A DNA stretch of 44,009 nt, from sequence record SRR20825010_1978, one strand, 5' to 3'. The notes beneath the pieces were generated by a model, which saw only the letters and a program-made list of their open reading frames with translations, made no database searches and had not been told where the DNA came from. The position numbers and the translations under genes are program-made. This document shows, piece after piece, positions 4,098-33,681 of the stretch (its first letter is position 1; every line of letters starts with the position of its first letter).

Positions 4098-5707
4098 TGG
4101 CGACTCTCGACAGCGCACTTGACCCCAACAGCGAAGAATACCGCCAGAACCGCGACGCCTTGCTCGCGGCCGTGGAGGAATTCCGTGCCATCGAACAGGC
4201 CGTGGTGGATACCGCGGAAAGCAAACGGGCCAAGTTTGAAAAACGTGGCCAACTGCTTCCCCACGAACGTATCTCCCGGCTGCTGGATGCAGGCTCCCCG
4301 TTTTTAAGTCTGATGAACCTGGCCGGCTACAAGATGCACGACGACAAAGACGGCACCGAAGCCGGCGGCAGCACCATTGCCGGCATTGGCTATGTGTCCG
4401 GTGTCCGCTGCCTGGTCACCGCCTCCAACTCGGCCATCAAGGGCGGCACTATTTCTCCCTCCGGCCTGCACAAGACCCTGCGCCTGCAGCGCATTGCGCT
4501 GGAAAACAAACTGCCGGTGGTCAGCTTGGTGGAATCCGGCGGTGCTAACCTGAACTATGCCGCAGAAGTGTTCGTGGATGGCGCCCGCACCTTTGCCAAC
4601 CAGGCACGCCTGTCCGCCGCAGGCATTCCGCAAATCACCGTGGTTCACGGCAATGCCACCGCCGGCGGTGCCTACCAGCCAGGCCTGTCCGATTACGTGG
4701 TGGTGGTCCGCGAACGTGCCAAGATGTTTCTGGCCGGCCCGCCGCTGCTGAAAGCCGCTACCGGTGAAATTGCCACCGACGAAGAGCTGGGCGGCGCAGA
4801 GATGCATGCCGGCACCGCTGGGACAGCCGAGTACCTGGCGCAGTCCGATGCAGACGGTATCAGCCAGGCTCGAGATCTGGTGAAACTACTGGGCTGGCGC
4901 CGGGCGGCAGCCGAGGCGCCCGAGCATGAAGCACCTAAATTCCCGCCTGAAGAACTGCTTGGCGTGGTGCCTGCCGATGCCAAGAAACCCTACGACGTAC
5001 GCGAAATCATTGCCCGCATCGTCGATGGTTCCGACTTTCTGGATTTCAAAAACGAGTGGGATAGCGCCACCGTCTGCGGCTGGAGCACCATCGAAGGCAA
5101 GCCCGTGGGCATCATTGGTAATAACGGACCGATTACGCCACGCGGCGCCGCCAAGGCAGCCCAGTTTATCCAGCTGTGCGATCAGACCCGCCGCCCCTTA
5201 CTGTTCCTTCACAACACTACCGGCTTCATGGTCGGTACCGATGCGGAACAGAACGGGGTGATCAAAAACGGCTCGAAAATGCTGCAGGCTGTGGCCAACG
5301 CACGGGTGCCGAAAATTTCCGTGCTGGTGGGCGGCTCCTACGGGGCCGGCAATTACGCCATGTGCGGCCGGGGACTGGATCCGCGCTTCATCTTTGCCTG
5401 GCCGAATTCCAAAGTCGCGGTCATGGGTGGCCAACAGGCCGGCATGGTGCTGCGCATTGTGGCCGAGGGCAAACAACGGGCTAACGGTATCGAACCCGAC
5501 CCGAAAGTCCTCGACATGCTGCAACAGACCACCGCCCAGAAACTGGACAGCCAGTCCACTGCGCTCTACGGCACCGCCCGGCTTTGGGACGACGGCATTA
5601 TCGACCCCCGCGACACCCGCCGGGTGGTGGCCTACGCGCTGGATATTTGCGATGACGCAGAACAACGCCAGCTACACCCGAATTCGTTCGGGGTGGCGAG
5701 ACTTTAA
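4097..5707 (+). CDS. atuC: geranyl-CoA carboxylase, carboxyltransferase (beta) subunit
   Basis: Carboxyltransferase motifs (VESGGANL, GFMVG, GGSYGAGNYAMCGR). TAATG overlap with atuB. Confidence 0.9.
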   Translation: MATLDSALDPNSEEYRQNRDALLAAVEEFRAIEQAVVDTAESKRAKFEKRGQLLPHERISRLLDAGSPFLSLMNLAGYKMHDDKDGTEAGGSTIAGIGYVSGVRCLVTASNSAIKGGTISPSGLHKTLRLQRIALENKLPVVSLVESGGANLNYAAEVFVDGARTFANQARLSAAGIPQITVVHGNATAGGAYQPGLSDYVVVVRERAKMFLAGPPLLKAATGEIATDEELGGAEMHAGTAGTAEYLAQSDADGISQARDLVKLLGWRRAAAEAPEHEAPKFPPEELLGVVPADAKKPYDVREIIARIVDGSDFLDFKNEWDSATVCGWSTIEGKPVGIIGNNGPITPRGAAKAAQFIQLCDQTRRPLLFLHNTTGFMVGTDAEQNGVIKNGSKMLQAVANARVPKISVLVGGSYGAGNYAMCGRGLDPRFIFAWPNSKVAVMGGQQAGMVLRIVAEGKQRANGIEPDPKVLDMLQQTTAQKLDSQSTALYGTARLWDDGIIDPRDTRRVVAYALDICDDAEQRQLHPNSFGVARL

Positions 5708-5711
5708 AGGC

Positions 5712-5869
5712 AGTTAAAAGCTGAAAGTTCAAAGTTAAAAAGCGCGAATGATGCAAAGCCAAACGGACAAAGCTCAGCCCGCGCACGAAGACTGAGGCGC
5801 GGCTACCGATGACTTCAGTCAATGGCATGCCCGGCCCGCGTTTCAACTTTGAACTTTAAGCTTTCAACT
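5712..5869. repeat. heptamer-arm inverted-repeat element A1 (158 bp)
   Basis: Left arm AGTTAAA AGCTGAA AGTTCAA AGTTAAA AAGCGCG; right arm CGCG T TTCAACT TTGAACT TTAAGCT TTCAACT. Confidence 0.9.
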
Positions 5870-5908
5870 CAAACAACAGAACATAACGAACACAACAGGG
5901 AGCCTCCC

Positions 5909-7066
5909 ATGCAATTCACTCAGGAACACGAAGAACTTCGCCGTACAGTCCGTAATTTTGTCGACAAGGAACTGAACCCCCATGTCCGCGAATGGGAAGA
6001 TGCCGGACGCTTCCCGATTCACGAAGTGTTCAAGAAAATGGGCGACCTGGGGCTGCTCGGCGTCACCAAACCGGAAGAATTTGGCGGCATGGGCCTGGAC
6101 TATTCCTACGGCATGGTCATGAGCGAAGAAATGGGCCGCGTCCATTGTGGCGGCGTACCGTTGGCCGTTGGGGTACAGACTGACATGGCCACCCCCGCCA
6201 TCGCCCGGTTCGGTTCCGATGAACTGCGCCGTAATTACCTTGCTCCGGCCATTGCTGGCGACATGGTGGCCTCCATTGCCGTCTCCGAGCCCCATGCCGG
6301 TTCCGACGTGGCAGCGGTAAAAACCACCGCGGTGAAAGATGGCGACGACTACGTGATCAACGGTACCAAGATGTGGATCACCAACTCCCCCAGCGCGGAT
6401 TTCTTCTGCCTGCTGGCGAACACCTCCGACGCCAAGCCTCACGTCAACAAATCCCTGATCGTGGTGCCCAAGGATGCCGCTGGAATCACCGTGGACAAGC
6501 CTCTGAACAAGCTGGGCATGCGCTCTTCGGAAACTGCCCAGGTGTTCTTCGATAACGTGCGCGTGCCCCAGCGCAACCTGATCGGTCAGGAAGGCATGGG
6601 CTTCATGATGCAGATGATGCAGTTCCAGGAAGAGCGTCTATTTGCCGCGGCCAATAGTCTCAAGGGCATGGAACATGTCATCGATGAAACCATCGCCTAT
6701 GCCAAAGATCGCAAAATATTCGGCATGTCACTGATCGACAACCAGAGCGTGCATTTCCGTCTGGCCGAACTGCAAACCGAGGTCGAAGCCCTGCGCGCCC
6801 TCACCTACCAGGCCTGCGAAATGTATGTGAATGGCAAGGACGTCCTGCAGCTGGCCTCCATGGCCAAACTGAAAGTGGGCCGCCTGAGCCGTGAAGTCGC
6901 TGACAGCTGCCTGCAGTACTGGGGCGGTAACGGCTTCATGTGGGAAAACCCCGCCGGCCAGCTCTACCGTGATGGCCGCCTGGGTTCCATCGGTGGCGGC
7001 GCCGACGAAGTCATGCTAGGCATTATCTGCAAGACCATGGACATCCTGCCGGGCAAGAAAAAATAA
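5909..7066 (+). CDS. atuD: citronellyl-CoA dehydrogenase (acyl-CoA dehydrogenase)
   Basis: ACAD motifs (SEPHAGSDV, GTKMWITN, IGGGADEVM). Start at MQFTQEHEEL after GGGAG. Confidence 0.9.
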   Translation: MQFTQEHEELRRTVRNFVDKELNPHVREWEDAGRFPIHEVFKKMGDLGLLGVTKPEEFGGMGLDYSYGMVMSEEMGRVHCGGVPLAVGVQTDMATPAIARFGSDELRRNYLAPAIAGDMVASIAVSEPHAGSDVAAVKTTAVKDGDDYVINGTKMWITNSPSADFFCLLANTSDAKPHVNKSLIVVPKDAAGITVDKPLNKLGMRSSETAQVFFDNVRVPQRNLIGQEGMGFMMQMMQFQEERLFAAANSLKGMEHVIDETIAYAKDRKIFGMSLIDNQSVHFRLAELQTEVEALRALTYQACEMYVNGKDVLQLASMAKLKVGRLSREVADSCLQYWGGNGFMWENPAGQLYRDGRLGSIGGGADEVMLGIICKTMDILPGKKK

Positions 7067-7067
7067 C

Positions 7068-7226
7068 AGTTCAAAGTGAAAAGTTGAAAGTTCAAAAGCG
7101 CGGGCCGGCATTGTGCCATAAGCATTACACCCTTCCCGCGCTCAAATGTTGCAACGCGAATCAAGAAAATTTCATCTGACGTCAGAGCCTATTCGTATTT
7201 CAACTTTGAACTTTTAACTTTCAACT
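7068..7226. repeat. heptamer-arm inverted-repeat element A2 (159 bp)
   Basis: Left arm AGTTCAA AGTGAAA AGTTGAA AGTTCAA AAGCGCG; right arm CGTA T TTCAACT TTGAACT TTTAACT TTCAACT. Confidence 0.9.
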
Positions 7227-7248
7227 AGCTTTTCGAACGAGGCGACTT

Positions 7249-8055
7249 ATGAAGCTCCCGACAACCGAAACAATCACCCTTAACCAGGACGGCCCGGTTC
7301 TGCATATCACCTTGAACCGGCCCGAAAGCCGCAATGCCATGAGCCTGACCATGGTGAACGAATTGATGGCGGTGTTTGAAAGCGTGGCCGGCGATACAAC
7401 CATTCGTGCCATCGTTCTGCGCGGCGCCGACGGCCATTTCTGTGCCGGCGGCGACATCAAGGACATGGCCGGAGCGCGACAGCAGGCCGCCGGCGGCGAC
7501 GATAATGCCTTCCAGGCGCTGAACCGTCGTTTCGGGGAAATGATTACCGCTGCCAACCGCCAGCCACAGGTAGTGATCACCGTGCTGGAAGGCGCTGTGT
7601 TGGGGGGCGGGTTCGGCCTGGCGTGTATCTCGGACGTGGCCATCGCCAGCGAAGACGCCACCTTCGGCCTGCCGGAAACCGGGCTGGGAGTCATCCCCGC
7701 ACAAATTGCCCCCTTTGTCGTAGAACGCATCGGCCTGACCCAGGCCCGCCGCCTGGCCTTGACTGGCGTACGTTTCAAAGGAAGTGAAGCCTTGCGGCTG
7801 GGCATCGTGCATGAGGTGGCAAGTGACTCCATGGCGCTGAATGCTGCCCTGGAGAACACCCTGTCGGCCGTTCGCCGCTGTGCGCCACATGCCAATCGCG
7901 TCACCAAAGAGCTGGTATTAAACGTGGGCCACATTCCCATGGGCACCTTGCTGGACCAGGCCGCCACTGACTTCGCCGCTGCGGTCAACAGCGAGGAAGG
8001 ACAGGAAGGCACCATGGCGTTCGTGCAAAAACGCCCGGCGGCCTGGAATCAATAA
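7249..8055 (+). CDS. atuE: isohexenylglutaconyl-CoA hydratase (crotonase family)
   Basis: LNRPESRNAM, FCAGGDI, GGGFGL and FGLPETGLG motifs, and its operon position. Confidence 0.88.
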   Translation: MKLPTTETITLNQDGPVLHITLNRPESRNAMSLTMVNELMAVFESVAGDTTIRAIVLRGADGHFCAGGDIKDMAGARQQAAGGDDNAFQALNRRFGEMITAANRQPQVVITVLEGAVLGGGFGLACISDVAIASEDATFGLPETGLGVIPAQIAPFVVERIGLTQARRLALTGVRFKGSEALRLGIVHEVASDSMALNAALENTLSAVRRCAPHANRVTKELVLNVGHIPMGTLLDQAATDFAAAVNSEEGQEGTMAFVQKRPAAWNQ

Positions 8056-8066
8056 GCACATACGTT

Positions 8067-8141
8067 GCGAGGAACGAGTGACGAGTCGTGAAACCAGGTT
8101 GCCTCGTTTTTGCATTTCGCTACTCGTTACTCGTATCTCGC
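8067..8141. repeat. heptamer-arm inverted-repeat element B (ACGAGTN units, 75 bp)
   Basis: GCGAGGA ACGAGTG ACGAGTC GTGAAA, 21 nt, TTTCGC TACTCGT TACTCGT ATCTCGC. Confidence 0.8.
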
Positions 8142-8217
8142 TCCTGAGCGGTTCGTGTCCTCAAGCACCGCTCCTGAGGGAAAGCATTTTCAACCGGAAC
8201 ACCGGTAAGGAATCACA

Positions 8218-10188
8218 ATGAGCTTTGAAAAAATCCTGATTGCCAACCGTGGCGAGATTGCCTGCCGGGTCATCGCCACCGCCCAGTCCCTGGGCTACCG
8301 GACCGTGGCGGTCTATTCCGAGCCGGATGCCGGTGCCCGTCATGTGCAACTGGCTGACGAAGCGGTTTGTATCGGCCCGGCCCTGGCCAGCGCTTCCTAC
8401 CTGAACATGGACGCCTTGCTCGCCGCCTGCCAGCAAACCGGCGCTGATGCGGTGCATCCCGGTTACGGCTTTCTCTCCGAAAATGCTGCTTTTTCCAAGG
8501 CATGCAAAGAGGCGGGCATTACCTTTATCGGCCCCGATGAAGACGCCATTCAGCTGATGGGCTCCAAACGGCTTTCCAAGATTGCCATGCAGGACGCCGG
8601 TGTGCCGTGTATCCCCGGCTACCAGGGCGAAGAACAAAGTGACGAACGCTTACAGCAGGAAGCCGAACGTATCGGCCTGCCCTTGATGATCAAAGCCAGT
8701 GCCGGCGGTGGCGGTCGGGGTATGCGCGTGGTCACCGACGCAGGGGATATCAGCGCACAGCTGAAAAGCGCCCGTCAGGAAGCCAAGAACGCGTTCGGCA
8801 GTGACGAGCTGATCCTGGAACGCGCCGTGCTGCAGCCCCGGCATGTGGAAATTCAGGTATTCGGTGACCGCCACGGCAACGTGATCCATCTGGGCGAGCG
8901 CGACTGCTCCGTGCAACGCCGCCACCAGAAAGTGGTGGAAGAAGCGCCCTCCCCGGCAGTGGACGAGTCCCTGCGCCAACGCATGGGCGAGGCCGCCGTA
9001 CAGGCCGCCAAGGCCTGCCAGTATGTGGGCGCCGGCACGGTGGAATTCCTGCTTGCTCCGGAGGGCGACTTCTTCTTCCTGGAAATGAACACTCGCCTGC
9101 AGGTAGAGCATCCGGTCACCGAGCTGGTCACCGGTCTGGATCTGGTCGCCTGGCAAATCAAGGTCGCTAGAGGTGAAGCCCTGCCACTAACCCAGGACCA
9201 GGTACAGCTCACCGGCCATGCCATGGAAGTGCGCCTCTATGCGGAAGATCCGGCGCAAAATTACATGCCACAGACCGGCCCGGTATTGCGCTGGCAACCG
9301 GCCAGAGGTGACGGAATTCGCATCGACCACGGCCTGGTGGAAGGCGCCGAGATTGGCAGCCATTACGACCCCATGCTGGCCAAGATCATTGCCGTGGGTG
9401 ATAGCCGCGAAGACGCCCGCCGCCGCCTGATTCGTGCCGTGCAAGACACCACCCTGATGGGCGTCAACGACAACCGTCAGTTCCTGGCAGCGATCCTCGC
9501 CCATCCAGTTTTTGCCCGTGGTGACGCAACTACCGCCTTTATTGGGGATGACTTTGCCGACGACAGCAGCCTGGCCGGCGATGCCCCGGACGCCCTGTTA
9601 TGGGCACTGGCTGCCCTGTATCACTGTCGCAGCGAAACCCCCTCTGATGCCCTGCGCGGCTGGCACTCCAGCACCTTGGGCGCACAGCCGGTCACCCTGC
9701 GCTGCGGCGAGCACACCCAGACTCTCTACATTCGCTATCAGGATGACGCGGCACAAATCAGCGTCAGCGATGCGGCACCAGCCATCACTCTGGCACCACT
9801 CAGCGACAACCGCGTGGCTGTCAACGGCGTCGCTGTGGACGTCACCGTGTTACAGGATGGCAAGCAATACTGGCTGCAATGTCAGGGCCGCACCGCCTGC
9901 TTCACCGATGATACCCATACCGCAGCCGGCAGCAGCGACCAGGCCGGTTCCGGCCTGATCCGAGCCCCCATGGACGGCGCCATTATCGACGTGAACGTGA
10001 AAGCCGGCGATACCGTCAGCAAGGGGCAGGTTCTGGTGGTCATGGAGGCCATGAAAATGGAACACAGCCTGAAAGCAGACTGCGACGGCAAGGTAGAGGC
10101 GCTCGATCTGAGCCCCGGCAGCCAGGTAAAACGCCAGCAATTGCTGGTTACCGTCACCCCGGATGCAGCTGTCACATCCGGTCAGTGA
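8218..10188 (+). CDS. atuF: geranyl-CoA carboxylase alpha subunit (biotin carboxylase plus biotin carrier)
   Basis: KILIANRGEIA, HPGYGFLSENA, EMNTRLQVEHPVTE and the C-terminal EAMKM biotinylation motif. Confidence 0.92.
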   Translation: MSFEKILIANRGEIACRVIATAQSLGYRTVAVYSEPDAGARHVQLADEAVCIGPALASASYLNMDALLAACQQTGADAVHPGYGFLSENAAFSKACKEAGITFIGPDEDAIQLMGSKRLSKIAMQDAGVPCIPGYQGEEQSDERLQQEAERIGLPLMIKASAGGGGRGMRVVTDAGDISAQLKSARQEAKNAFGSDELILERAVLQPRHVEIQVFGDRHGNVIHLGERDCSVQRRHQKVVEEAPSPAVDESLRQRMGEAAVQAAKACQYVGAGTVEFLLAPEGDFFFLEMNTRLQVEHPVTELVTGLDLVAWQIKVARGEALPLTQDQVQLTGHAMEVRLYAEDPAQNYMPQTGPVLRWQPARGDGIRIDHGLVEGAEIGSHYDPMLAKIIAVGDSREDARRRLIRAVQDTTLMGVNDNRQFLAAILAHPVFARGDATTAFIGDDFADDSSLAGDAPDALLWALAALYHCRSETPSDALRGWHSSTLGAQPVTLRCGEHTQTLYIRYQDDAAQISVSDAAPAITLAPLSDNRVAVNGVAVDVTVLQDGKQYWLQCQGRTACFTDDTHTAAGSSDQAGSGLIRAPMDGAIIDVNVKAGDTVSKGQVLVVMEAMKMEHSLKADCDGKVEALDLSPGSQVKRQQLLVTVTPDAAVTSGQ

Positions 10189-10400
10189 CAATTTAGCCAC
10201 GGAGAGGGATGCTCCGCTGTGCTCCAATAATTTGCACCGGGCAAATTGGGCCAAAACGGGTCCCGACAATTTCCCCGGGCACTGCCACCGGGCAGGGCGC
10301 TTGCCCTGCCCTGGTGCTACGGTTAAGGTAAGCGCCCGCTTGCCAACACTGGGCTCCCGGCTTTTCCGGGCCTTCCAAGAACACAGACAATGGAGATCCT

Positions 10401-12230
10401 ATGAGCAACGCCGACATCATCACGTTGCCCAAGCTTCTGTCCAAGGTTCCAGAGGTAATCACCAATCTTCCCGGCCTGATCAAGGGCTCGAAGATGGCGA
10501 AAATCACTGACACCAGCAAGCCATTGGGGCTGGGCGTTGCTATCGAGCGCGCCACCAGCATGAACCCGAATGGCGCTGCCGTGATCTACCAGGACACAGA
10601 ACTTACTTACAAGCAGTTCAACGCCTGGGCCAACCGCCTGGCAGACTATCTGGCCTCTATCGGCCTGAAAAAAGGCGATACCGTTGCCGTCAACGTGGAA
10701 AACCGCCCCGAGCTATTGGCCACTGTTCTTGCCTGCGCCAAACTGGGCGTCTGTGCGGCCCTGATCAATACCTCCCAGCGCGGCAAGGTACTGATCCATA
10801 GTTTCAATCTGGTGAAACCCAAAGCCGCCATCGTTGGCGAAGAATTGATTGATGCCGTGGAAGAAGTCCGCGGTGATCTGGATCTGAAAGACAATTTCTT
10901 CTTCTTTGCGGATCAGAACACCCTGGAAAACCCCGGTGAAGCCCCGGCGGGTTACAAAAACCTGGCCAGCGAAAGCCGTGACTGCTCCAGTGAGAACCCG
11001 GCGTCCAGCAAGCAGACATTCCTGCGCGACCCGCTGTTCTACATTTATACCTCCGGCACCACTGGTCTGCCCAAGGCGGTGGTCTTCAACCACGGCCGCT
11101 GGGAAAAAGCCTATGGTGGCTTCGGCTTCTCCGCCGTACGCCTGACCAAGGATGACCGCATCTACACCACCCTGCCGTTCTACCACGCCACCGGCATGGT
11201 GATCTGCTGGGCGTCCGTGATCGCCAGTGCCGGCGCCATTGTCATTGCGCGTAAATTCTCCGCCAGTGGCTTCTGGGACGACATCCGTCGCCATAACTGT
11301 ACCGCCTTCGGCTATGTCGGCGAGCTGTGCCGTTACCTGCACGAACAACCAGAGAAGCCGAACGATCAGGACAACAAGGTCCACACCATCGTCGGTAACG
11401 GCCTGCGCCCGAGCATCTGGAAAGACTTCAAGAACCGCTTCGGCATTGATCGTGTGGTCGAGCTGTATGCCTCCTCGGAAGGCAACGTGGCTTTCACCAA
11501 CGTGTTCAACTTCGACAACACAGTGGGTTTCTCCCCGGTCAGCTACGCCATCGTCAAATACGACAAAGAGCGTGACGAGCCAGTGCGTGACAGCAAAGGC
11601 CACATGATCAAGGTCGGCAAGGGTGAATCCGGGCTGATGCTGGGCGAGATCACCGAGAAAACTCCTTTCGACGGCTACACCGACCCGGAGAAAACAGAGA
11701 AATCCATCTACCGTGATGTCTTTGCCAAAGGTGATGCCTGGTTCAACACCGGCGACATGATGCGCGATATCGGTTTCCGCCACGCCCAGTTTGTGGACCG
11801 CCTGGGGGATACCTTCCGCTGGAAAGGTGAAAACGTATCCACCACCGAAGTGGAACAGATTCTTGATGGCTACGACGGCATCCAGGAATCCGTGGTCTAC
11901 GGTGTGGAAATTCCCAACACCAACGGCCGTGCCGGCATGGGCCAGATCCGCCTGACCGGTAACCACAGCGACTTCGACTTCGAGGGCCTGTGTGCCTACC
12001 TGAAGCGGGAATTGCCGCCTTATGCCATTCCGGTTTTCCTGCGTATCAACGAAGAAGCCATGGAAACCACTGGCACCTTCAAGCACCAGAAAAACAAGCT
12101 CAAGGAACAGAAGTATGACCTGAGCCAACAAAGCAACGCGGTGTACGCGCTGCTACCTGGTGAAAGCTGCTACCAGAAACTGGACGAAGCCACGCAAAAC
12201 GGCATCGACAGTGGTGAGTACCGCTTCTAG
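10401..12230 (+). CDS. FATP/very-long-chain-type acyl-CoA synthetase
   Basis: AMP-binding YIYTSGTTGLPKA and the FATP signature DRLGDTFRWKGENVSTTEVE. GGAG RBS. Confidence 0.9.
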   Translation: MSNADIITLPKLLSKVPEVITNLPGLIKGSKMAKITDTSKPLGLGVAIERATSMNPNGAAVIYQDTELTYKQFNAWANRLADYLASIGLKKGDTVAVNVENRPELLATVLACAKLGVCAALINTSQRGKVLIHSFNLVKPKAAIVGEELIDAVEEVRGDLDLKDNFFFFADQNTLENPGEAPAGYKNLASESRDCSSENPASSKQTFLRDPLFYIYTSGTTGLPKAVVFNHGRWEKAYGGFGFSAVRLTKDDRIYTTLPFYHATGMVICWASVIASAGAIVIARKFSASGFWDDIRRHNCTAFGYVGELCRYLHEQPEKPNDQDNKVHTIVGNGLRPSIWKDFKNRFGIDRVVELYASSEGNVAFTNVFNFDNTVGFSPVSYAIVKYDKERDEPVRDSKGHMIKVGKGESGLMLGEITEKTPFDGYTDPEKTEKSIYRDVFAKGDAWFNTGDMMRDIGFRHAQFVDRLGDTFRWKGENVSTTEVEQILDGYDGIQESVVYGVEIPNTNGRAGMGQIRLTGNHSDFDFEGLCAYLKRELPPYAIPVFLRINEEAMETTGTFKHQKNKLKEQKYDLSQQSNAVYALLPGESCYQKLDEATQNGIDSGEYRF

Positions 12231-12251
12231 CGCACTCGCTGCAAAGAAGCA

Positions 12252-12281
12252 CAAAAAAGGCGCCTCACGGCGCCTTTTTTG
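12252..12281. terminator. bidirectional intrinsic terminator
   Basis: CAAAAAAGGCGCC-TCAC-GGCGCCTTTTTTG. Confidence 0.88.
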
Positions 12282-12373
12282 GTTCTGCACAGTCCACAGA
12301 TAAACACATCGCAGGCACCAGCCTGTTAACACTTGCACGGCACTCAGCTGTAACGACTCAATCACCAGCTCAG

Positions 12374-13062
12374 TTACTCACACCCACCTTTCTATCCACG
12401 ACATCTGTGGATAACACTGTTAGCGAGTGTCGGATAACGCGACCAAAGCCAGCCATGGCGGGCCATCCAGCGATTTGCGTGGTTTTTCACCAAGCTGACA
12501 CAGGCTCGGAAAAGCGACGAAAGGTCAAGCCCGTCAGGACTTTTTTCTGTGCTGGGGATTATTCCACAAAAGCTGTGCATAACTTTGTGAACAACCTGAC
12601 TAAAAGCCGCCGAAGCGCCCGGCATACGCCGCTTCCCCCAAACTGGTTTATTTTTACGCTAATCATAAACCATTGATTATTCAGTGACTTATTGGTGCTT
12701 TTTTACACTACTCACAGAGAGAGGTTGGCCCGGTTGGCAAAATGGCGGGAGTAATCAGCTTGTGCAAAAGCGTCAGACAAATCATATATCTGTCATAACA
12801 AACCTGTGTTTTCGGTCTATGGCGAATCAGTGTGTTCCTGGCTGGCAGACTTTTTCCACAGATCCTGTGGGTAACCCTGTGCATAGACGGTAGAAAACAT
12901 TGCAACATCACCCAAAAATCACGCCTCAGGACGACATGACTGTTTTTTAACCAATCTTTTTTTTATTTTTAAATCATGAGGTTACGCTATTTTTTATGGG
13001 TTTTTAACGTAGTTGTCATTTTTTTCAGCAGAAAAAGAGCATTGACAAAAAACTGTGTACAA
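12374..13062. promoter_or_regulatory. DnaA-box cluster with IHF/Fis-like sites (DARS-like)
   Basis: Three units of box, 5 bp, inverted box, 3 bp, box at 12392-12426, 12560-12594 and 12852-12886. Extra boxes at 12374, 12761 and 13054. Perfect IHF consensus at 12666-12678 (minus strand). Confidence 0.75.
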
Positions 13063-13153
13063 AATTGGGGCAGCCACACGTTACCAAGGGTGACACCCTG
13101 GTACAGCCGTGCATATAACAGGCCACTTTCCTTTTCCTCTATCCGGTTCGCCA

Positions 13154-13200
13154 CTGCCACCCTGCCCCTCAAGCACACACCTTCAGGGCAAGAGTGGCAG
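13154..13200. other. stem-loop just downstream of gcdH
   Basis: CTGCCACCCTGCCC...GGGCAAGAGTGGCAG imperfect inverted repeat with no U-tract. Confidence 0.4.
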
Positions 13201-13205
13201 AGTTG

Positions 13206-14372
13206 TTAGCCGAAGGCCTGCAAGCCGGTCTGTGCCCGGCCCAGTATCAAGGCGTGAACATCGTGCGTACCTTCGTAGGTATTTACCGCTTCCAGGTTCA
13301 TCACATGGCGAATCACATGGTATTCATCGCTGATCCCATTGCCGCCATGCATGTCACGGGCCTGACGGGCGATATCAATGGCCTTGCCACAATTATTGCG
13401 CTTCATCAGCGAGACCATTTCCGGTGACCAGTCTCCTGCATCCATCAACCGGCCCAGCTGCAAGGCGCCCTGCAGACCCAGGGTGATCTCAGTTTGCATA
13501 TCCGCCAGCTTTTTCTGTATCAGCTGAGTCGCCGCCAATGGACGGCCAAACTGTTTGCGGTCCAGGGTGTACTGGCGAGCCGCCTGCCAACAGAATTCCG
13601 CCGCGCCCATGGCGCCCCAGCTAATCCCGTAGCGCGCCTTGTTCAGGCAGCTGAACGGCCCCTTCAGGCCTTCCACGTCTAACCGGTTTTCTTCCGGCAC
13701 AAAGCAATCGTCCAGCGAGATCTGCCCGGTGATGGAGGCACGCAGAGAGAACTTGCCTTCGATCTTCGGCGTGCTGAAGCCGTCAAAGCCCCGCTCCACT
13801 ACAAAGCCGTTGATCTTGCCGTCCAGGTTGGCCCACACCACCGCCACATCCGCAATCGGCGAATTGGTAATCCAGGTCTTGGCCCCATTGAGCAGGTAAC
13901 CCCCATCCACTTTTTTGGCACGGGTGCTCATGGAGCCCGGGTCTGAACCGTGGTCCGGCTCGGTCAGGCCAAAGCAGCCCACCCATTCACCGGTGGCAAG
14001 CCTGGGCAGGTATTTCTCGCGCACCGCTTCACTGCCGAAGGTGTAGATAGGGAACATCACCAGGGACGACTGCACGCTCATGGCTGAACGGTAACCGGAA
14101 TCCACCCGCTCCACTTCACGGGCAACCAGGCCATAACTGACATGGTTTACGCCGGCGCCACCATATTGCTCAGGAATGGTGGGGCCGAGAAAGCCCAGTG
14201 CGCCCATTTCCGTCATGATTTCCCGGTGGAAAATCTCGTGACGGTTCGCCTCAAGCACGCGCGTCATCAACTTGCTCTGGCAGTAGTCCTGCGCCGCATC
14301 ACGGATCATTCGCTCGTCTTCAGTGAGCTGGGTTTCCAGCAACAAGGGGTCTTTCCAGTCAAATCTCTGCAT
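13206..14372 (-). CDS. gcdH: glutaryl-CoA dehydrogenase
   Basis: [11 protein letters not shown]-terminus, [47 protein letters not shown] at 14372 after AGGA. Confidence 0.92.
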
Positions 14373-14402
14373 CTTCAATCCTGTTCAAGTCATTCCTGTA
14401 AG

Positions 14403-14469
14403 GCGGAGATCGGCTTACGCTGATTTCCGCTCTATCGGGTTTTCGTTATTCACTATTAATTATTCACTG
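14403..14469. repeat. REP-like hairpin plus solo heptamer arm
   Basis: GCGGAGATCGGC-TTAC-GCTGATTTCCGC (14403-14430). Minus strand CAGTGAA TAATTAA TAGTGAA TAACGAA (14469-14442). Confidence 0.55.
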
Positions 14470-15666
14470 TCTTTCAATCACCATGGCCACACCCTGGCCC
14501 ACCCCGATACACAGGCTCACCAGTGCATAGCGACCGCCAGTGGCTTCCAGCTGCCGCGTGGCGGTGAGCGCCAGGCGGGCGCCGGAGGCACCCAGCGGAT
14601 GGCCCACGGCGATAGCGCCGCCATTCGGGTTCAGGCGTTCATCATCGCCGGCCAGCCCCAGCTGCTTACAGCAACCCAACACCTGGGCGGCGAATGCCTC
14701 ATTGATTTCGATGACATCCATCTGCTCCAGCCTCAGGCCGGCCCTGGCCAATGCCTTGTTACAGGCCTCAACCGGCCCCAACCCCATGACGCGAGGCGCC
14801 ACACCAGCAACGGCCCCCGCCAGAATACGGGCACGCGGTGCAATGCCAGCCGCTTCTCCGGCCGCTCGGGAGCCCACGATCAGCGCCGCCGCCCCATCAT
14901 TGACCCCCGACGCATTGCCGGCAGTAATCACCCCACCGTCTACAATCGCAGGCAGTTTGGCCAGCTTATCCACGCCGGTTCCCGGACGCGGGTGCTCGTC
15001 GTCAGTCACCGTCAGTGGATCTTTCTTGCGGCCCTGCGGCACCGTTACCGGTGTCATTTCTTCACGGAAGAAGCCCCGCTCGCGGGCGTCCTCGTAGCGC
15101 TGCTGGGATCGGGCGGCAAAGGCGTCCGCGGATTCACGGCTGATAGCCAGATCCTCAGCCACATTCTGGGCCGTCTCCGGCATGGTATCGTCGCCAAACT
15201 GCTGGAGGATTGCCGGGTTGGGGAAACGGGCACCAATGGTGCTGTCGAAAATCGTCATGTCCCGGCTGAAGGCTTTCTCTGCCTTGGCCATGACAAAGGG
15301 GGCGCGGCTCATGGATTCCGTGCCGCCGGCGATAACCAGATCGCCCTCACCCACGGTGACCATACGGGCGGCATCCAGGGTCGCGGCCAGGCCACTGCCA
15401 CAAAGCCGGTTCACAGTAATTCCAGCCACCGATTCCGGCAGACCCGCGAGCAGGCCGGCATGGCGAGCCACGTTACGGGCATCCTCACCGGCCTGGTTGG
15501 TGTTGCCGATGACCACGTCTTCAAAGCCCGCAGGCTCGAAACGATTACGCTGCACCAGCTCGCGGATCACCCCGGCCAGCAAATCATCCGGCCGCACCGG
15601 CGCCAGCGCGCCACCGTGGCGGCCAAAGGGGGTTCGCAGACCATCGTAAATATAGGCATCAAGCAT
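14464..15666 (-). CDS. 3-oxoadipyl-CoA/acetyl-CoA C-acyltransferase (PcaF/PaaJ-type thiolase)
   Basis: NQAGEDARNVAR, NRLCGSGL, NEAFA, GHPLGASG and CIGVGQG motifs. Start MLDAYIYDG after GGAGA. Confidence 0.9.
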   Translation of the reverse strand: MLDAYIYDGLRTPFGRHGGALAPVRPDDLLAGVIRELVQRNRFEPAGFEDVVIGNTNQAGEDARNVARHAGLLAGLPESVAGITVNRLCGSGLAATLDAARMVTVGEGDLVIAGGTESMSRAPFVMAKAEKAFSRDMTIFDSTIGARFPNPAILQQFGDDTMPETAQNVAEDLAISRESADAFAARSQQRYEDARERGFFREEMTPVTVPQGRKKDPLTVTDDEHPRPGTGVDKLAKLPAIVDGGVITAGNASGVNDGAAALIVGSRAAGEAAGIAPRARILAGAVAGVAPRVMGLGPVEACNKALARAGLRLEQMDVIEINEAFAAQVLGCCKQLGLAGDDERLNPNGGAIAVGHPLGASGARLALTATRQLEATGGRYALVSLCIGVGQGVAMVIERQ

Positions 15667-15682
15667 AAGCATTCTCCGAATG

Positions 15683-15837
15683 TGCAGCAGGCTCCACGCA
15701 ACACGCAACAACGCGTTAACACCCCTGATCAGAAGCCACCGCCGTGCCGCGAATCCGGGGCCGGACGCGACCACCAAGAGACAGTCCAATCCACTGACTT
15801 ACAGCGTGTTGTTGCGTGCAGCTTGAAGCGTGCCGCA
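15683..15837. repeat. heptamer-arm inverted-repeat element C (GCWNCAM-like units, 155 bp)
   Basis: Left arm GCAGCAG GCTCCAC GCAACAC GCAACAA CGCG; right arm CGTG TTGTTGC GTGCAGC TTGAAGC GTGCCGC. The arms match at 27/35 positions. Confidence 0.85.
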
Positions 15838-16017
15838 GCAAGCTCGTCCGCTATGCGGAATGATGTTTTGAAACTTGACGGGCAGAATAGGCCGTGACAG
15901 AGTGCGATGCAAGTGGTGCAACCGGGCAGTCGCAAGACATGCCTCCCCAGGCCGCAACCACCCAACAAGAGTCTGCCGTTACCGCCCCGAACCCCATTAT
16001 AGCCGCCGGACCCAGCC

Positions 16018-17175
16018 ATGATTCGTGATGCCGAAATTCTCTCGCAGTTGACTGACACCATTGCCCGTTTTGTACACGAACGACTCGTTCCCGCCGAACA
16101 GCAAGTGGCCGAAAGTGACGCCATTCCCGACGACATTATCGCCGACATGAAGGCCATGGGCCTGTTCGGATTGTCGATTCCGGAGGAGCTTGGCGGACTC
16201 GGGCTAACCATGGAAGAGGAAGTCATGGTGGCCTTTGAACTGGGTCGCACCTCCCCCGCGTTTCGCTCCCTCATGGGCACCAACAATGGTATCGGCGCCC
16301 AGGGCATCCTGATTGATGGCACCGACGAACAGAAACAAAAATACGTTCCCCAGCTCGCCACCGGGGACGTGATTGGCGCCTTCTGCCTGACCGAACCGGA
16401 CGTGGGCTCCGACTCCGGCGCAGTGAAAACCCGTGCCGACAAAGACGGCGATCACTATATCCTCAACGGCACCAAGCGCTTTATCACCAACGGCCCCCAT
16501 GCCGGCCTCTTTACCGTGATGGCGCGCACCAACCCGGATATCGCGGGCGGTGGCGGTGTTACCGCCTTTATCGTCGAGGGAGACACCCCCGGCATTCACC
16601 GCGGCAAGGCGGACGTGAAAATGGGCCAGAAAGGCGCCCACACCTGCGACATCATTTTTGAAAATTGCCGGGTCCCCGCAGAGAACATTATCGGCGGCCA
16701 GGAAGGCAAGGGGTTCAAAACCGCCATGAAAGTGCTGGACCGGGGCCGGCTGCATATTTCTGCCATCTGCGTGGGCGTTGCCTACCGGCTCATCGAGGAC
16801 GCGGTGAATTTTTCTGCCGAGCGCAAACAGTTCGGCAAGCCCATCATCGAGCACCAGCTGATTCAGGCCATGCTGGCTGACTCCCGGGCAGAAGCCTTCG
16901 CCGGCCGCTCCATGGTACTGGAAGCCGCCCGCAGCAAGGACCGGGGAGAACGGGTCAGCCTGGACGCCTCCTGCTGCAAGCTGTTCTGCTCGGAAATGGT
17001 AGGACGGGTGGCCGATCGTGCCGTGCAGATTCATGGCGGCGCAGGCTACATGGCGGACTATCCGGTGGAACGGTTCTATCGCGATGTGCGGCTGTTCCGT
17101 ATTTACGAAGGCACCACCCAGATTCAGCAGATAGTCATCGCCCGGGAACTGGCGCGGCAGGCGAAAAGCAGTTGA
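16018..17175 (+). CDS. acyl-CoA dehydrogenase
   Basis: FCLTEPDVGSD, GTKRFITN, QIHGGAGY and RIYEGTTQIQ motifs. Confidence 0.92.
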   Translation: MIRDAEILSQLTDTIARFVHERLVPAEQQVAESDAIPDDIIADMKAMGLFGLSIPEELGGLGLTMEEEVMVAFELGRTSPAFRSLMGTNNGIGAQGILIDGTDEQKQKYVPQLATGDVIGAFCLTEPDVGSDSGAVKTRADKDGDHYILNGTKRFITNGPHAGLFTVMARTNPDIAGGGGVTAFIVEGDTPGIHRGKADVKMGQKGAHTCDIIFENCRVPAENIIGGQEGKGFKTAMKVLDRGRLHISAICVGVAYRLIEDAVNFSAERKQFGKPIIEHQLIQAMLADSRAEAFAGRSMVLEAARSKDRGERVSLDASCCKLFCSEMVGRVADRAVQIHGGAGYMADYPVERFYRDVRLFRIYEGTTQIQQIVIARELARQAKSS

Positions 17176-17361
17176 ACGTTCAAAGTGGAAAGTTCAAAAG
17201 CGCGTTCCATGCCAAAGGTAACTGATGCAATCCGTGCCCGCGACCACTGGCCGATTCGCGATGCAAGCATCGCGAATAACATCGGTCGGCACGGCGCCGG
17301 CTTTGTTCAATCTGCAGCAACAGTGATTCGCGTTTCAACTTTGAACGTTACACTTTCAACT
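17170..17361. repeat. heptamer-arm inverted-repeat element A3 (192 bp)
   Basis: Left arm AGTTGAA CGTTCAA AGTGGAA AGTTCAA AAGCGCG; right arm CGCG T TTCAACT TTGAACG TTACACT TTCAACT. Internal perfect hairpin ATTCGCGATGC-AA-GCATCGCGAAT. Confidence 0.9.
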
Positions 17362-17366
17362 CATCC

Positions 17367-18761
17367 ATGCCGCTGACCCGCCTCCTCGATTACACCCTCC
17401 CCCTGTGCATGATCGGCACAATCCTGTCTCTGGTGTTCGATCTGGACGCCGGGGCCTGGCTGGCACGAATTGCCTTACTGGTTTATCTGCTGGTGCAATG
17501 GCCCCGGCAAGCCCCCATGGCCAAAGGCATTCTGCTGGTAGTGATCGCCATGGCCGGCGTTGTTATCTGCCGTGAAGCCCAGCCTGTTCCGGTTTTACTG
17601 CAGGCCCTGGACCGCCTCTGTTTTTTCGCCACTTTCGTTTCATCACTGGGCCTGCTGCGCGTCTCCGCCATGCGCTCGCGATTGGTCCGCGATGCGGGGC
17701 AAACCCTGATTCGCCAAAAACCTGCGCTGCGCTACCCCACCCTGTCTCTGGGGACCGCACTGTTCGGCATTATCATCAACATCGGAGTACTAAACCTGTT
17801 CGGCGCCATGGTGATGCGCAGCAATACGCTCAAGGCGGCAGGCGGACACGATGATATTCAACAGGCCCGCGAGCGGCGGATGATGTTGTCGATTTTGCGC
17901 GGCTTTGCCCTGGCCCCCCTGGTATCGCCACTGGGAGTAACCATGGCGGTAATTCTGGCGAATATGCCCAGCCTCACCTGGGCCAGCCTGGCCCCGGTGG
18001 CGCTGCCCACCGCCGGGCTCTTTTTTCTGCTCGGCTGGTGGCTGGACTGGCAACTGCGCCCCAAGCAACTGGCTGACCGTGTACCTGAAACACAGCCGCC
18101 CTCATTGTCGCCACTTATTCGCTTCACCCTGCTCGCCGTACTGATCACCCTGAGCGTCTTTGCCGTTGCCCTGGCGGGGAATTTGCGTTTACCCGTGGCC
18201 GTCCTGATTGCCTGCCCGCTTGCTGCCATCCTGTGGATGGCAAAACAGAGACGGCGACTTGGGGGCGGCACCGGGCTGCGCCGCTCTCTGACCTTGCTTG
18301 CCCGTCATTCGCGCTTGATCTTCGGAGCCAATCGAGGGGAAATTGCCGTGCTGGGTGGGTCCGCCTGCCTGGGCGCACTGATCACTCCCCTGGTAGATCA
18401 ACACGCCTTGCACGATCTGCTACTGGCCACCCATCTGCAAGGCGCCGCCATGGCCGTGGCGGCCATGTTGCTGGTGGTCGGGTTAGCGCAAGTGGGGCTG
18501 AACCCAATCGTGTCTGTCACCCTGCTCGCCTCCTTGCTGGGTGACGGCGTCGGGGTGGACCCGAGAGTCCTGGCGGTCGGGTTGATGTGTGCCTGGAGTC
18601 TGTCGATGATTTCCTCCCCCTTCACCGCCTCCATGCTGGTACTCAGCCAACTGATTCATCGCTCCCCCTACCGGATCGCCTGGCACTGGAACGGGCTGTT
18701 CTTTGTGTTGGTGGTGCCAATGCTGGCGTTGTGGATTGGGGTAATGACGCAATGGTTGTGA
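17367..18761 (+). CDS. polytopic membrane protein, probable carboxylate transporter (IT/DctM-like)
   Basis: About 12 hydrophobic segments, in a CoA-catabolic gene context. The family assignment is tentative. Confidence 0.65.
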   Translation: MPLTRLLDYTLPLCMIGTILSLVFDLDAGAWLARIALLVYLLVQWPRQAPMAKGILLVVIAMAGVVICREAQPVPVLLQALDRLCFFATFVSSLGLLRVSAMRSRLVRDAGQTLIRQKPALRYPTLSLGTALFGIIINIGVLNLFGAMVMRSNTLKAAGGHDDIQQARERRMMLSILRGFALAPLVSPLGVTMAVILANMPSLTWASLAPVALPTAGLFFLLGWWLDWQLRPKQLADRVPETQPPSLSPLIRFTLLAVLITLSVFAVALAGNLRLPVAVLIACPLAAILWMAKQRRRLGGGTGLRRSLTLLARHSRLIFGANRGEIAVLGGSACLGALITPLVDQHALHDLLLATHLQGAAMAVAAMLLVVGLAQVGLNPIVSVTLLASLLGDGVGVDPRVLAVGLMCAWSLSMISSPFTASMLVLSQLIHRSPYRIAWHWNGLFFVLVVPMLALWIGVMTQWL

Positions 18762-18765
18762 GAGC

Positions 18766-18928
18766 AGTTGAAAGTTCAAAGTGTAGAGTTGAAAAGCGCG
18801 CGCGAGCCTGTCGTGAACAGTTAAGCCGTGCCCGCGTTGCGCACTTTGTGGAAACGCGGAGGAAAGCACTTATCGGATGGCTTTGCCCATTTTCGCGCTT
18901 TTTGACTTTACACTTTGAACTTTCAACT
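18766..18928. repeat. heptamer-arm inverted-repeat element A4 (163 bp)
   Basis: Left arm AGTTGAA AGTTCAA AGTGTAG AGTTGAA AAGCGCG; right arm CGCGCTT TTTGACT TTACACT TTGAACT TTCAACT. The arms match at 32/35 positions. Confidence 0.92.
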
Positions 18929-18938
18929 CACCCTCAGA

Positions 18939-19967
18939 TCAGGCCGCAAAGAGCCAGATCCCATCGCGGTCTTCTCGCTGCACCCTGCCCTGCTCCAGCA
19001 GGCAGTTAAGGTGAGCAATACTCTCGCCCATGGCAAACATCATTTGCTGCACATCCAGTTGCCGCTTGAACATCACCGGCAATACATCGTGGGCATTATG
19101 AGGCTGCTCACAGCAGGCAGCATGCACCTGATCCAGCTGCTCGGCGTGGTGATCCACCAGCGTATTGATCCGCGTATGCAGCCCCCGAAAAGGCAAACCG
19201 TGGGCGGGCAGCACCAGCGTGTCTTCCGGCAATGCATCGCGGATTACTGTCAGGCTTTCCACAAACGCTGTCACTGGATTGGCGTTCGGCTCCGTGGGGC
19301 GCACCATCAAGTTACTGGAAATGGTCGGCAGCACCTGGTCCCCACTGAGCAACACCCGGTCGGCGCTGCGGTACAGACACAAATGCTCCGGTGCATGGCC
19401 GCGGCCGATATACACCTGCCAACGCTCCCCATTGATGGTCAACGTGTCGCCCTCGGCCACAAATTCCGGACTCTCAGGCAAAGGCATCACCACCCGGCGA
19501 AAGCCGTTGCCTTTACCCGCCACTTTATCCAGGTCTTCGCCTTGCAGGCCGTGGCTGCCCAGAAACCCCCTGAACCGCTCAATGGTCTGGGCGTCCGTTG
19601 CGTGGCAAATGCTGGTGGCCAGTTGCCACTCGCCCCGGCTCATGATCACCGGCGCCTCGCATTGCTGCTGCAGCCAGCCCGCCATGCCCAGATGATCCGG
19701 GTGATAATGGGTAACGATCACCCGAGTGACCGGTTTTCCGTCGAGCTGCTCTGCCAGCAGCTGCTGCCAGATTTCCCGGCTGCGCCTAACACCAAGGCCG
19801 GTATCCACAACCACCCAACCCTGGTTATCTTCCAGCAACCAGAGGTTGATATGGTCGAGCGCAAACGGCAGCGGAAAACGCAGCCAGAAAACGCCGTCGG
19901 CCACCTTGAAACGCTGAGCTGCCGGTGGCAGATCAGTAAACGGGTAGATTAATGGGGACGTCGTCAT
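18939..19967 (-). CDS. MBL-fold metallo-hydrolase
   Basis: THYHPDHLG (HxHxDH), GHAPEH, SGDQ and PAHG motifs. Confidence 0.9.
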   Translation of the reverse strand: MTTSPLIYPFTDLPPAAQRFKVADGVFWLRFPLPFALDHINLWLLEDNQGWVVVDTGLGVRRSREIWQQLLAEQLDGKPVTRVIVTHYHPDHLGMAGWLQQQCEAPVIMSRGEWQLATSICHATDAQTIERFRGFLGSHGLQGEDLDKVAGKGNGFRRVVMPLPESPEFVAEGDTLTINGERWQVYIGRGHAPEHLCLYRSADRVLLSGDQVLPTISSNLMVRPTEPNANPVTAFVESLTVIRDALPEDTLVLPAHGLPFRGLHTRINTLVDHHAEQLDQVHAACCEQPHNAHDVLPVMFKRQLDVQQMMFAMGESIAHLNCLLEQGRVQREDRDGIWLFAA

Positions 19968-20012
19968 AACGTTTTCCTTCTACTGCTAAATACGGCGAAT
20001 AGGAGCACAACC

Positions 20013-32015: not shown

Positions 32016-33170
32016 ATGACCGAAACCGCAGCCCCTGCTTGCCAGCATGCCATCGTCATCGGCGCCGGGCTGGCCGGAGCCACCACGGCCCGCGCCCTGG
32101 CCGAACGGAACTGGCAAGTGACCGTTGTGGACCCCCGGGGCGTTGCCGCCGGCGCCTCCGGCAATCTGGCCGGCGTGGTGTATAGCACCGCCAGCCCGCA
32201 CCTGACGCCGCAGAACCGCTTCTATAAGGAAAGTTACCGTCATGCATTACGCTGGCTGCACCGTTACGGCTTCCCCGCCAGCGATCAGGACGGCCAACTC
32301 AATGGGGTCATCCAGCACTTTGTAAACGACAAACAACGGGACAAATTCACCGCGGCCATGGACAGCGGCGCCTGGCCTGCCGACCTGCTACGCCCGGCGC
32401 CGGACGGCAATGGAGTGGAACTGGTGGGCGGCGGTTACCTGCGCCCGAATCGCTGGTGCCAGCACCTGCTTGATCACCCGGGCATCACCCTGCTTCGCGA
32501 ATCCGTGGCCTCACTACACGAAGGCACGCCCGCCAGCGTCATGCTGGACAATGGCAGCCAACTGCACGCCAACGCCGTGGTGGTCTGCGCCGCCGGCGCC
32601 AGCCAGCAGCTATCGGGCCTGGCCTGGCTACCGCTTAAACACATTCGCGGCCAGGTCAGTTATTGCCAGGCCACCGAGGCCTCCCGGCAATGGCAGCAGG
32701 CCCAATGCCATGGCGGCTACCTGACGCCGGCACTGGATGATCTTCATTGCGTAGGCGCCACCTTCAATCTGCACGACAGCCAACCCCGCCCCACCGATGC
32801 AGACGACGCTGACAACCTGGCACAACTGAAACACTACCTGCCCGAACACTGGCAGGCGCTAGGCGGGGAAGCCATTGTCATCCAGGACCGGCGTGTAGCC
32901 TTTCGTTGCCAGAGCCTCGACTTTCTCCCTCTGTGCGGCCCGTTGCCCGTGGCCACTGAAAACCCCCATCGCAGTGCCACCGGCCTGTACCTGAATGTGG
33001 CCCACGGCAGCCGGGGCATTACCGGCACCCCCCTGTGCGCCGACCTGCTGGCCGACCAGATTGGCGGGCAACCGCTTCCCGTGGATGCACAATTGGTTGA
33101 CGCCCTGGACCCATCCCGGTTTATTGTTCGCAAACGCAAAAAACAACCTGAGTGGAAACCATGCAATTAA
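32016..33170 (+). CDS. mnmC: FAD-dependent cmnm5s2U34 oxidoreductase (MnmC C-terminal domain only)
   Basis: VIGAGLAG, A.GASGN, IRGQVS, GYLTP...HCVGATF and HGSRG motifs. There is no N-terminal methyltransferase domain. Confidence 0.8.
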   Translation: MTETAAPACQHAIVIGAGLAGATTARALAERNWQVTVVDPRGVAAGASGNLAGVVYSTASPHLTPQNRFYKESYRHALRWLHRYGFPASDQDGQLNGVIQHFVNDKQRDKFTAAMDSGAWPADLLRPAPDGNGVELVGGGYLRPNRWCQHLLDHPGITLLRESVASLHEGTPASVMLDNGSQLHANAVVVCAAGASQQLSGLAWLPLKHIRGQVSYCQATEASRQWQQAQCHGGYLTPALDDLHCVGATFNLHDSQPRPTDADDADNLAQLKHYLPEHWQALGGEAIVIQDRRVAFRCQSLDFLPLCGPLPVATENPHRSATGLYLNVAHGSRGITGTPLCADLLADQIGGQPLPVDAQLVDALDPSRFIVRKRKKQPEWKPCN

Positions 33171-33553
33171 TCAGCTTGCCCATTACCGCCTTGTACGCCG
33201 CCCTGTGCGGTTTTCTTGTCGTCGCCCTGGCGGCTAACGTGGTTCGCTACCGTCTGGGAAAAAAAGTGTCCCTAGGTGATGGCGGCCACAAAGACGTGAA
33301 TCGCGCGATCCGTGCCCACGGCAACACGGTGGAATACATTCCGCTGGCGCTGATCCTGATGGCCTTGCTGGAAATCAATGGCGGAGGCAATAGCGCCCTG
33401 CATGTTTACGGCATCCTGCTGCTGGCCGGGCGCCTGTCCTACGCCTATGGCATGCTGGTGCCCCGCAGCAGCGCCAACCTGCCCCGCCAGCTCGGCATCC
33501 TCACATCCTGGATTGTCATTGTCGGCACCGGCATCCAGTTGCTGTTGGTATAA
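33161..33553 (+). CDS. MAPEG-family membrane protein
   Basis: VSLGDGG...RAIRAHGNTVEYIPLALILM motif. Confidence 0.85.
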   Translation: MQLISLPITALYAALCGFLVVALAANVVRYRLGKKVSLGDGGHKDVNRAIRAHGNTVEYIPLALILMALLEINGGGNSALHVYGILLLAGRLSYAYGMLVPRSSANLPRQLGILTSWIVIVGTGIQLLLV

Positions 33554-33681
33554 GACGTAAGCGCGACGCCCCAAGCCTGATGCCTGACGCTAAAGGCAAA
33601 AGACGAAAAACTGAAGTTCAGGGTTTTGCACGTCATCGAATGCATCCCTGACAATATTCACTTTTTTATAGAACTGGATAT

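Follow-up and report, generated by a model that had tools for sequence, protein, structure and literature searches.

The 155-bp inverted repeat at 15683–15837 of the DNA analysed here (record SRR20825010_1978; its full 44,009 nucleotides are called the window below) is a real copy of an abundant, dispersed Alcanivorax family of small hairpin-forming elements. We refer to this copy as C. Cassettes with a PF05635 (S23p) gene form part of the same wider class of heptamer-armed elements as this gene-less family. Concerning C itself, we favour, at somewhat better than even confidence, a gene-less, intervening-sequence-like hairpin element in the 5′ leader of a thiolase gene, the long stem of which is probably a target of RNase III.

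The repeat consists of two 33-nt arms, 79% complementary to each other, with 89 nt between them. Its parts are as follows:

15683–15715, plus strand: left arm, four heptamers (TGCAGCA GGCTCCA CGCAACA CGCAACA) followed by the junction ACGCG.
15716–15804, plus strand: interior of 89 nt; its length is conserved and its sequence unconserved among the 22 C-type interiors compared.
15740–15770, plus strand: central hairpin with the inner CGCG boxes at 15748–15751 and 15766–15769; weak in this copy and devoid of a T-run.
15805–15837, plus strand: right arm, CGTGT followed by four heptamers complementary to the left arm.

Over the 33 positions of the stem, 26 form Watson–Crick pairs and seven are mismatched. 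Both strands fold better than their shuffled counterparts (z = −2.8 and −3.0). The arms consist of four units in register that have G as their second and A as their seventh base, and the inner 12 nt of the left arm represent the conserved core of the C-type family. A reading of the arms as GCAGCAG GCTCCAC GCAACAC GCAACAA, given previously for this DNA, describes the same sequence with the register shifted by one base. Across the window the period-7 signal amounts to 48 positions, compared to 0–12 for periods 5, 6, 8 and 9. The proposed spacing of the CGCG boxes could be reproduced as well, since CGCG-N32-34-CGCG-N14-CGCG-N34-36-CGYG matches exactly at 15712–15808. For 18 elements RNAalifold predicts an outer stem of 23 pairs and a central hairpin of seven pairs, with compensatory changes at two pairs. 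Because of this prediction, two of the four CGCG boxes of the C scaffold can be assigned to the arm junctions and the other two to the sides of the central hairpin. In many other family members the central hairpin is strong, has A- and T-rich flanks and resembles a terminator; in C it is weak, and a terminator scan found no terminator-like site inside 15683–15837. With Rfam 15 at the gathering score, the sole match in the whole window was a tRNA at 74–146, and there was none in C.

Four sister elements with AGTTSAA arms are found in the same window (no strand assigned):

5706–5871: A1; fits the exact scaffold pattern.
7062–7228: A2.
17164–17363: A3, with a longer interior; orthologues occur in three related genomes (G001, G019 and G020).
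18760–18930: A4.

The inverted repeat of C is far above chance. A scan of the window for 30-nt arms with a spacer of 60–140 and at least 23 of 30 matches gave four repeats or clusters (A1, A2, C and A4) and none in 20 dinucleotide shuffles. At 22 matches A3 was added, so that five were observed compared to a shuffle mean of 0.2. The exact scaffold pattern occurs twice, in C and A1, with 0.02 expected, and none of 100 shuffles reached two matches. The original prediction had assigned to C the interior geometry of the A copies and the total length of A1, A2 and A4. With regard to geometry this applies to A1, where the exact pattern lies at 5743–5840, and not to A2, A3 and A4. The equality in length is approximate only, the same measure giving 160 bp for A1, 161 bp for A2 and 163 bp for A4. 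The motif CCGTGCC(C)GCG is indeed common to C (15742), A3 (17232) and A4 (18826), and one more match is located in a coding region at 9030.

Between the genes for enoyl-CoA hydratase and methylcrotonyl-CoA carboxylase alpha the window contains another heptamer-armed inverted repeat (8063–8145), which has ACGAGT-like units, an interior of only about 21 nt and no CGCG scaffold. In contigs of two DNA runs (X1 and X15, region 5000–20000) the left arm of C, up to 15715, is joined to sequence resembling the A3 interior, from 17254 onwards, and loose ends are numerous at A-type arms. From these joins and loose ends, the genome to which the window belongs would seem to contain additional copies outside this stretch, which may share interior modules.

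To describe the family, genome-wide counts were taken from the genome nearest to the window (G001) and from its relatives, not from the window's own genome. In G001, sequences matching the arms of C are found in at least ten other places. There, the exact inner-arm pattern CGCAACAACRCG-N70-110-CGYGTTGTTGCG occurs seven times and its reversed control not at all. Of the 24 genomes of the genus, 7 contain the pattern, compared to none of 46 from the family's other eight genera; when each species was represented by a single genome, 23 loci were obtained, all titled Alcanivorax or Alloalcanivorax. Among 22 distinct C-type interiors, 86–97 nt long (median 88), the first CGCG lies at position 33–37 in every case and a second at 49–54 in 20, while the remaining interior sequence is unconserved. 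Length and a central CCGCG...CGCGG hairpin are thus all that is constant in the interior. A strict half-scaffold, ACGCG-N31-36-CCGCG-N9-15-CGCGG, gave 35 matches in G001 compared to two for the control. In 20 of the 24 genus genomes the count is more than 2.5 times that of the control (at most 102 versus 2), which is the case in none of the 46 genomes of the other eight genera. Within the genus, only G002, G003, G017 and G021 contain this half-scaffold at background level.

A looser form, CGCG-N32-36-CGCG-N12-14-CGCG, is weak by count alone, with 86 matches in G001 versus 71 for the reversed control. An inflation of this control by the elements themselves was considered and rejected, as control matches are confined to one of the 18 elements examined, which appears in two overlapping loci. 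For modularity we rely on the strict pattern and on direct inspection of matches, not on the loose count. Inspection of the first 30 loose matches in G001, in contig order, showed that a search with the scaffold alone does recover armed elements: 27 fall into 18 distinct heptamer-armed elements and three are without arms. The arms of these 18 elements are AATTAAT-like in seven, AGTTGAC-like in five, AGTTSAA in three and C-type in three. Since the scaffold-only search in G001 finds the module flanked by at least four types of heptamer, scaffold and arms are modular.

The element is located in the gap between a thiolase gene (minus strand, start 15666) and an acyl-CoA dehydrogenase gene (plus strand, start 16018), which are clustered with genes for methylcrotonyl-CoA carboxylase subunits and enoyl-CoA hydratase. 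Two neighbouring features define its position:

15664–15682, minus strand: thiolase start ATG (15666–15664) with the ribosome-binding site GGAGA; C begins 17 nt upstream of the ATG.
15846–15916, no strand assigned: conserved block of about 70 nt, lying between the acyl-CoA dehydrogenase gene and C and containing the palindrome TCCGC-TAT-GCGGA (15847–15859).

We took the second ATG of the thiolase gene as its start, because the upstream ATG runs straight into a stop in G001. The block at 15846–15916 is kept in the window and in all 16 related genomes compared, including four that have no element, and it is probably the shared regulatory region (operator and promoter) of the divergent genes. Since the block persists where the element is missing and C abuts the ribosome-binding site, we place C in the putative 5′ leader of the thiolase gene, as suggested by its position relative to these two features. 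The earlier assignment of C to a divergent promoter region is thus correct as to the divergent gap, but an insert in the 5′ leader, beyond the conserved block, is more likely than a place in the promoter. When 15600–16100 was scanned for promoters, no site with the sigma-70 consensus emerged; a minus-strand candidate picked by eye, TTGCAT-17-TATTCT, fails this consensus scan.

A long dyad between divergent genes of fatty-acid or leucine catabolism might also be read as an operator or attenuator specific to this locus. We give this reading hardly any credence, because each genome contains the scaffold at dozens of unrelated loci, the element is missing from the gap in four relatives that keep the conserved block, and the arm sequence in the gap varies between species.

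This variation became apparent when the orthologous gap was compared in the window and the 16 related genomes, the site being that between the thiolase ribosome-binding site and the conserved block. The occupants are:

C-type element: window, G001, G009, G019, G020.
A-type element: G004, G011, G023.
E-type element: G005, G013, G015.
D-type element: G022, G024.
No element: G003, G007, G010, G017.

A target-site duplication is not visible at the thiolase gap, and the element-free genomes hold about 55 nt of unrelated sequence instead of a clean empty site. This bears on the possibility that C is simply a MITE, which would have arisen from an insertion sequence by deletion and would be moved by a DDE transposase via its terminal inverted repeats. 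Such an origin would account for terminal inverted repeats on a dispersed unit of about 155 bp that is present or absent at orthologous sites. However, the interiors are unconserved between copies, unlike those of MITE copies, and the arm sequence varies among copies at constant geometry. Furthermore, the sole gene found between such arms is PF05635 and not a transposase. We therefore regard a MITE as very improbable.

The A-type interior at the thiolase gap is inverted between G023 (L039) and G004 (L042), with an identity of 0.89 as reverse complement and the arms in place. Window and G001 are about 99% identical in flanks and arms, but their interiors only 0.67, which is close to the shuffled null given below. 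With G019, which is more distant, the interior of the window shares an identity of 0.84. Between elements of different arm types, the identity of the interiors lies at the shuffled null (0.61 ± 0.05). A change of arms in place, considered on the basis of a 20-nt interior start shared by A and E types, was discarded: unrelated A copies look similar by eye, and the global identity equals the null. Because interiors of different arm types are at the null and window, G001 and G019 are discordant, a change of arms in place and an exchange of whole alleles are indistinguishable at the C locus.

The arms of C had been described as unrelated to AGTTSAA. This does not hold. Aligned from the junction, the A, C, D and E types have the ACGCG end in common, and each of their four units has a G at position 2 and an A at position 7. 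All arm types follow N-G-Y-W-N-M-A in register, ending in ACGCG, and they form a series with steps of one or two positions, from A (AGTTSAA) through E (AGTTRCA) and D (AGCTNCA) to C (YGCWNCA), so that intermediate types connect A to C. Consequently, the claim of a conserved scaffold with interchangeable heptamers stands with respect to modularity, given the at least four flavours in G001, but "interchangeable" has to be qualified, as the arms are a graded series. In the arms of the 13 elements of the thiolase gap, 359 of 429 cells are Watson–Crick pairs and 16 of 33 positions show at least two types of Watson–Crick pair, which means that pairing is kept while the arm sequence changes. Two explanations had been offered for the variable arms, an address read by partner proteins and a role of structure only. 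The compensatory changes at 16 of 33 positions are one point for the latter.

The possible partner protein is encoded by cassettes with arms of the same kind. PF05635 gave 38 matches in 14 of 15 genomes searched, the exception being G002, where none was found. Period-7 arrays stand on both sides of the gene in 24 of 35 fetched loci and on at least one side in 28, compared to a background of 4.7% of random 170-nt stretches. Inspection by eye revealed inverted arrays in all of the first 12 loci. The genes are found at some four conserved loci, namely glyA-nrdR, metK-ahcY, a site upstream of radC and one other gap, with the neighbouring genes named from a reading of translated ends and not by a family search. 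Among their arms are C-type ones (L059–L061, L063) and AGTTSAA (L064). C itself has no PF05635 gene, its interior of 89 nt being too short.

Two observations may be added here. In the window, a solitary period-7 tract (GCCTGAT GCCTGAC ...) follows the open reading frame 33152–33553 at 33575–33602; no partner arm was seen, and the tract has the same flavour as the PF05635 arms upstream of radC in G009 and G011 (L058, L074). At metK-ahcY of G011 (L071), the PF05635 gene contains an in-frame TAG and is still bracketed by GTCNGAC heptamer arms.

At the glyA-nrdR gap, a PF05635 cassette is found in 10 genomes and a gene-less CGCG-scaffold element with AGTTGMA arms in G001 and G020; in G002 no heptamers were found in this gap. 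As the gap holds either form, gene-bearing and gene-less elements are alternative occupants of one site. The gene-bearing cassettes have neither the ACGCG junction nor the CGCG hairpin, and for this reason the gene-less scaffold is to be seen as a module of its own and not as a simple deletion derivative. Its kinship to the cassettes appears likely from arm flavour and shared sites. One PF05635 locus has an expanded heptamer array upstream, with 10–14 or more perfect units of (AGCTACG)n or (AGCTACA)n, and a downstream arm of about four units (L077 in G011, L068 in G009, L085 in G024 and L088 in G023). This expansion to 10–14 or more units is direct evidence of repeat slippage.

Proteins and flanking genes do not always agree. 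At glyA-nrdR, G014 and G022 are 89% identical in the flanks and 96% in the PF05635 proteins, with the same arms. G004 and G024, on the other hand, are 96% identical in the flanks and only 63% in the proteins, with different arms. The identity of the proteins at this site thus tracks arm type and not the flanking genes, and the tree of the PF05635 proteins splits by locus and then by arm type. Both observations would suit an address, in which the heptamers are bound at the DNA or RNA level by a sequence-specific protein, a PF05635/Avd-like pentamer being the candidate; each flavour would have its cognate protein variant, and the gene-less elements would be non-autonomous partners. The two heptamer positions that are invariant in all flavours could be explained in this way, too, and CGCG boxes set at fixed distances, with no constraint on the sequence that separates them, are reminiscent of a protein ruler. 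However, protein and arms are less than 400 bp apart, so that their covariation needs no explanation beyond co-inheritance. A single PF05635 match, with AGTTAAC or AATTGAT arms, is found in G005 and in G013, yet both have an AGTTRCA element at the thiolase gap. The two PF05635 genes of G001 have C-type and AGTTTCG arms, yet the genome contains many elements with AATTAAT and AGTTGAC arms. A matching protein can hardly be required where gene-less elements exist in genomes without a PF05635 gene bracketed by the same flavour. On balance we judge recognition of the arms as an address to be unlikely, though a serious alternative. A more elaborate form would regard PF05635 proteins and heptamer arms as cognate pairs of an addressable hairpin-cassette system: the pentamer would read the 7-nt unit, both would co-diversify, alleles would swap between species at fixed intergenic docking sites, and gene-less CGCG elements such as C would be non-autonomous partners that punctuate or insulate transcripts. 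This is a speculative proposal, to which we attach a lower probability than to the address as such.

As C is an intergenic, hairpin-forming inverted doublet with many copies, and homologues of Y1_Tnp occur in all five genomes searched, a repeat of the REP/REPIN type mobilised by a RAYT (Y1 transposase) was also taken into account. Yet heptamer-armed repeats adjoin none of the 13 Y1_Tnp loci fetched. Eight of these loci have flanking inverted repeats, namely three palindromes with a GTAGGAGC head and other palindromes, and five have none. The arms of C are tandem direct repeats and not palindromes, and they are without a GTAG or CGTC head. This reading is largely refuted already, and we assign it only a very slight probability. 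The palindromes at the Alcanivorax Y1_Tnp genes are a separate repeat system in the same genomes; among the palindrome-flanked loci are L147, L148, L155, L156 and L158, with the GTAGGAGC head in L148, L155 and L158. In L156 there is also a (GGAGCCC)n array of about 12 units, more than 1 kb from the Y1_Tnp gene.

Data on transcription come from RNA libraries of one study (runs X2 and X3), in the form of assembled contigs, which cannot show RNA ends or serve as evidence of processing. In the region 5095–7312 such contigs cover A1, A2 and both neighbouring genes, which would agree with co-transcription, although the data are limited to contigs and carry-over of DNA is possible. The contigs break near A3 and A4 and provide thin cover over C; part of the C interior is contained in one contig (run X3), with a 2-nt deletion.

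With C as a leader hairpin, our preferred reading, the following course can be proposed. C would be transcribed in the thiolase 5′ leader, between the conserved block and the ribosome-binding site, and its arms would pair in the RNA into a 33-bp duplex. RNase III would cut this duplex as it does in the stems of intervening sequences, a function that we infer by analogy, and the thiolase mRNA would be trimmed to just upstream of the ribosome-binding site. The two arms may change their sequence together, while selection would keep pairing and geometry. Three processes are probably involved in this: repeat slippage, to which the array expansion points; correction of one arm by the other; and the passage of whole alleles from one lineage to another, to which the discordance of proteins and flanks points.

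Short gene-less intervening sequences exist. Among the closest known systems are the 23S rRNA intervening sequences of Coxiella, Leptospira, Salmonella and others. According to PMC4990558, these have, like C, terminal inverted repeats forming a stem of about 28–33 bp; like the Alcanivorax elements, they have arms of tandem heptamers, whose number varies between strains; and like the Alcanivorax cassettes, they can contain a PF05635/S23p gene between the arms. The Coxiella 23S intervening sequence has a 28-bp stem based on tandem heptamers, with the RNase III cut at the first repeat (PMC4990558). There are three differences. C has protein-coding genes on both sides and is part of an intergenic region or mRNA leader, not of 23S helix 25 or 45. 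Its family has a fixed, CGCG-spaced interior module, of which no counterpart is described in 23S intervening sequences. It also occurs in dozens of copies per genome and in several flavours.

Pairs of convergent heptamer repeats, (GGGAATC)n, are described for Xanthomonas with 70–75 pairs per genome, and tandem heptanucleotides for cyanobacteria (PMC4692102). The Xanthomonas pairs resemble C in being intergenic, inverted and able to form stem-loops (PMC4692102). The Alcanivorax units differ in that they are not G-rich, so that no quadruplexes are possible; in that the arms are fixed at four units plus ACGCG, with a defined interior scaffold; and in the presence of several unit flavours within one genome. 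REP, BIME and REPIN sequences with RAYT are, like the C family, abundant intergenic hairpin-forming repeats, often between genes of an operon. Unlike REP, C has neither a palindromic unit nor a head of the GTAG or CGTC kind, and other repeats accompany the RAYT genes found here. Finally, PF05635 resembles Avd, the accessory protein of diversity-generating retroelements, in sequence and structure, as stated in PMC10053308. In contrast to these retroelements, no reverse transcriptase and no pair of template and variable repeats was noticed beside the cassettes examined, in an unsystematic look.

In the literature, supplements aside, we found no description of heptamer-armed elements in Alcanivorax or of PF05635 cassettes outside rRNA, nor of the CGCG-spaced gene-less scaffold or its alternation with PF05635 cassettes at fixed sites. 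To our knowledge, heptamer-armed hairpins, which occur in many bacteria, are still unexplained. Alcanivorax offers a tractable case: the gene-less scaffold is precisely defined and present in dozens of copies per genome, several arm flavours stand side by side in one genome, and close relatives differ at orthologous sites in flavour, in interior orientation or in the presence of PF05635. In addition, some members are in culture, including named strains among the one-genome-per-species matches. The role of the proteins of 23S intervening sequences, and the question why seven-base repeats build stems, become directly testable in this way. The finding also matters for genome annotation, since such elements take up the spacers of operons and the 5′ leaders of catabolic genes.
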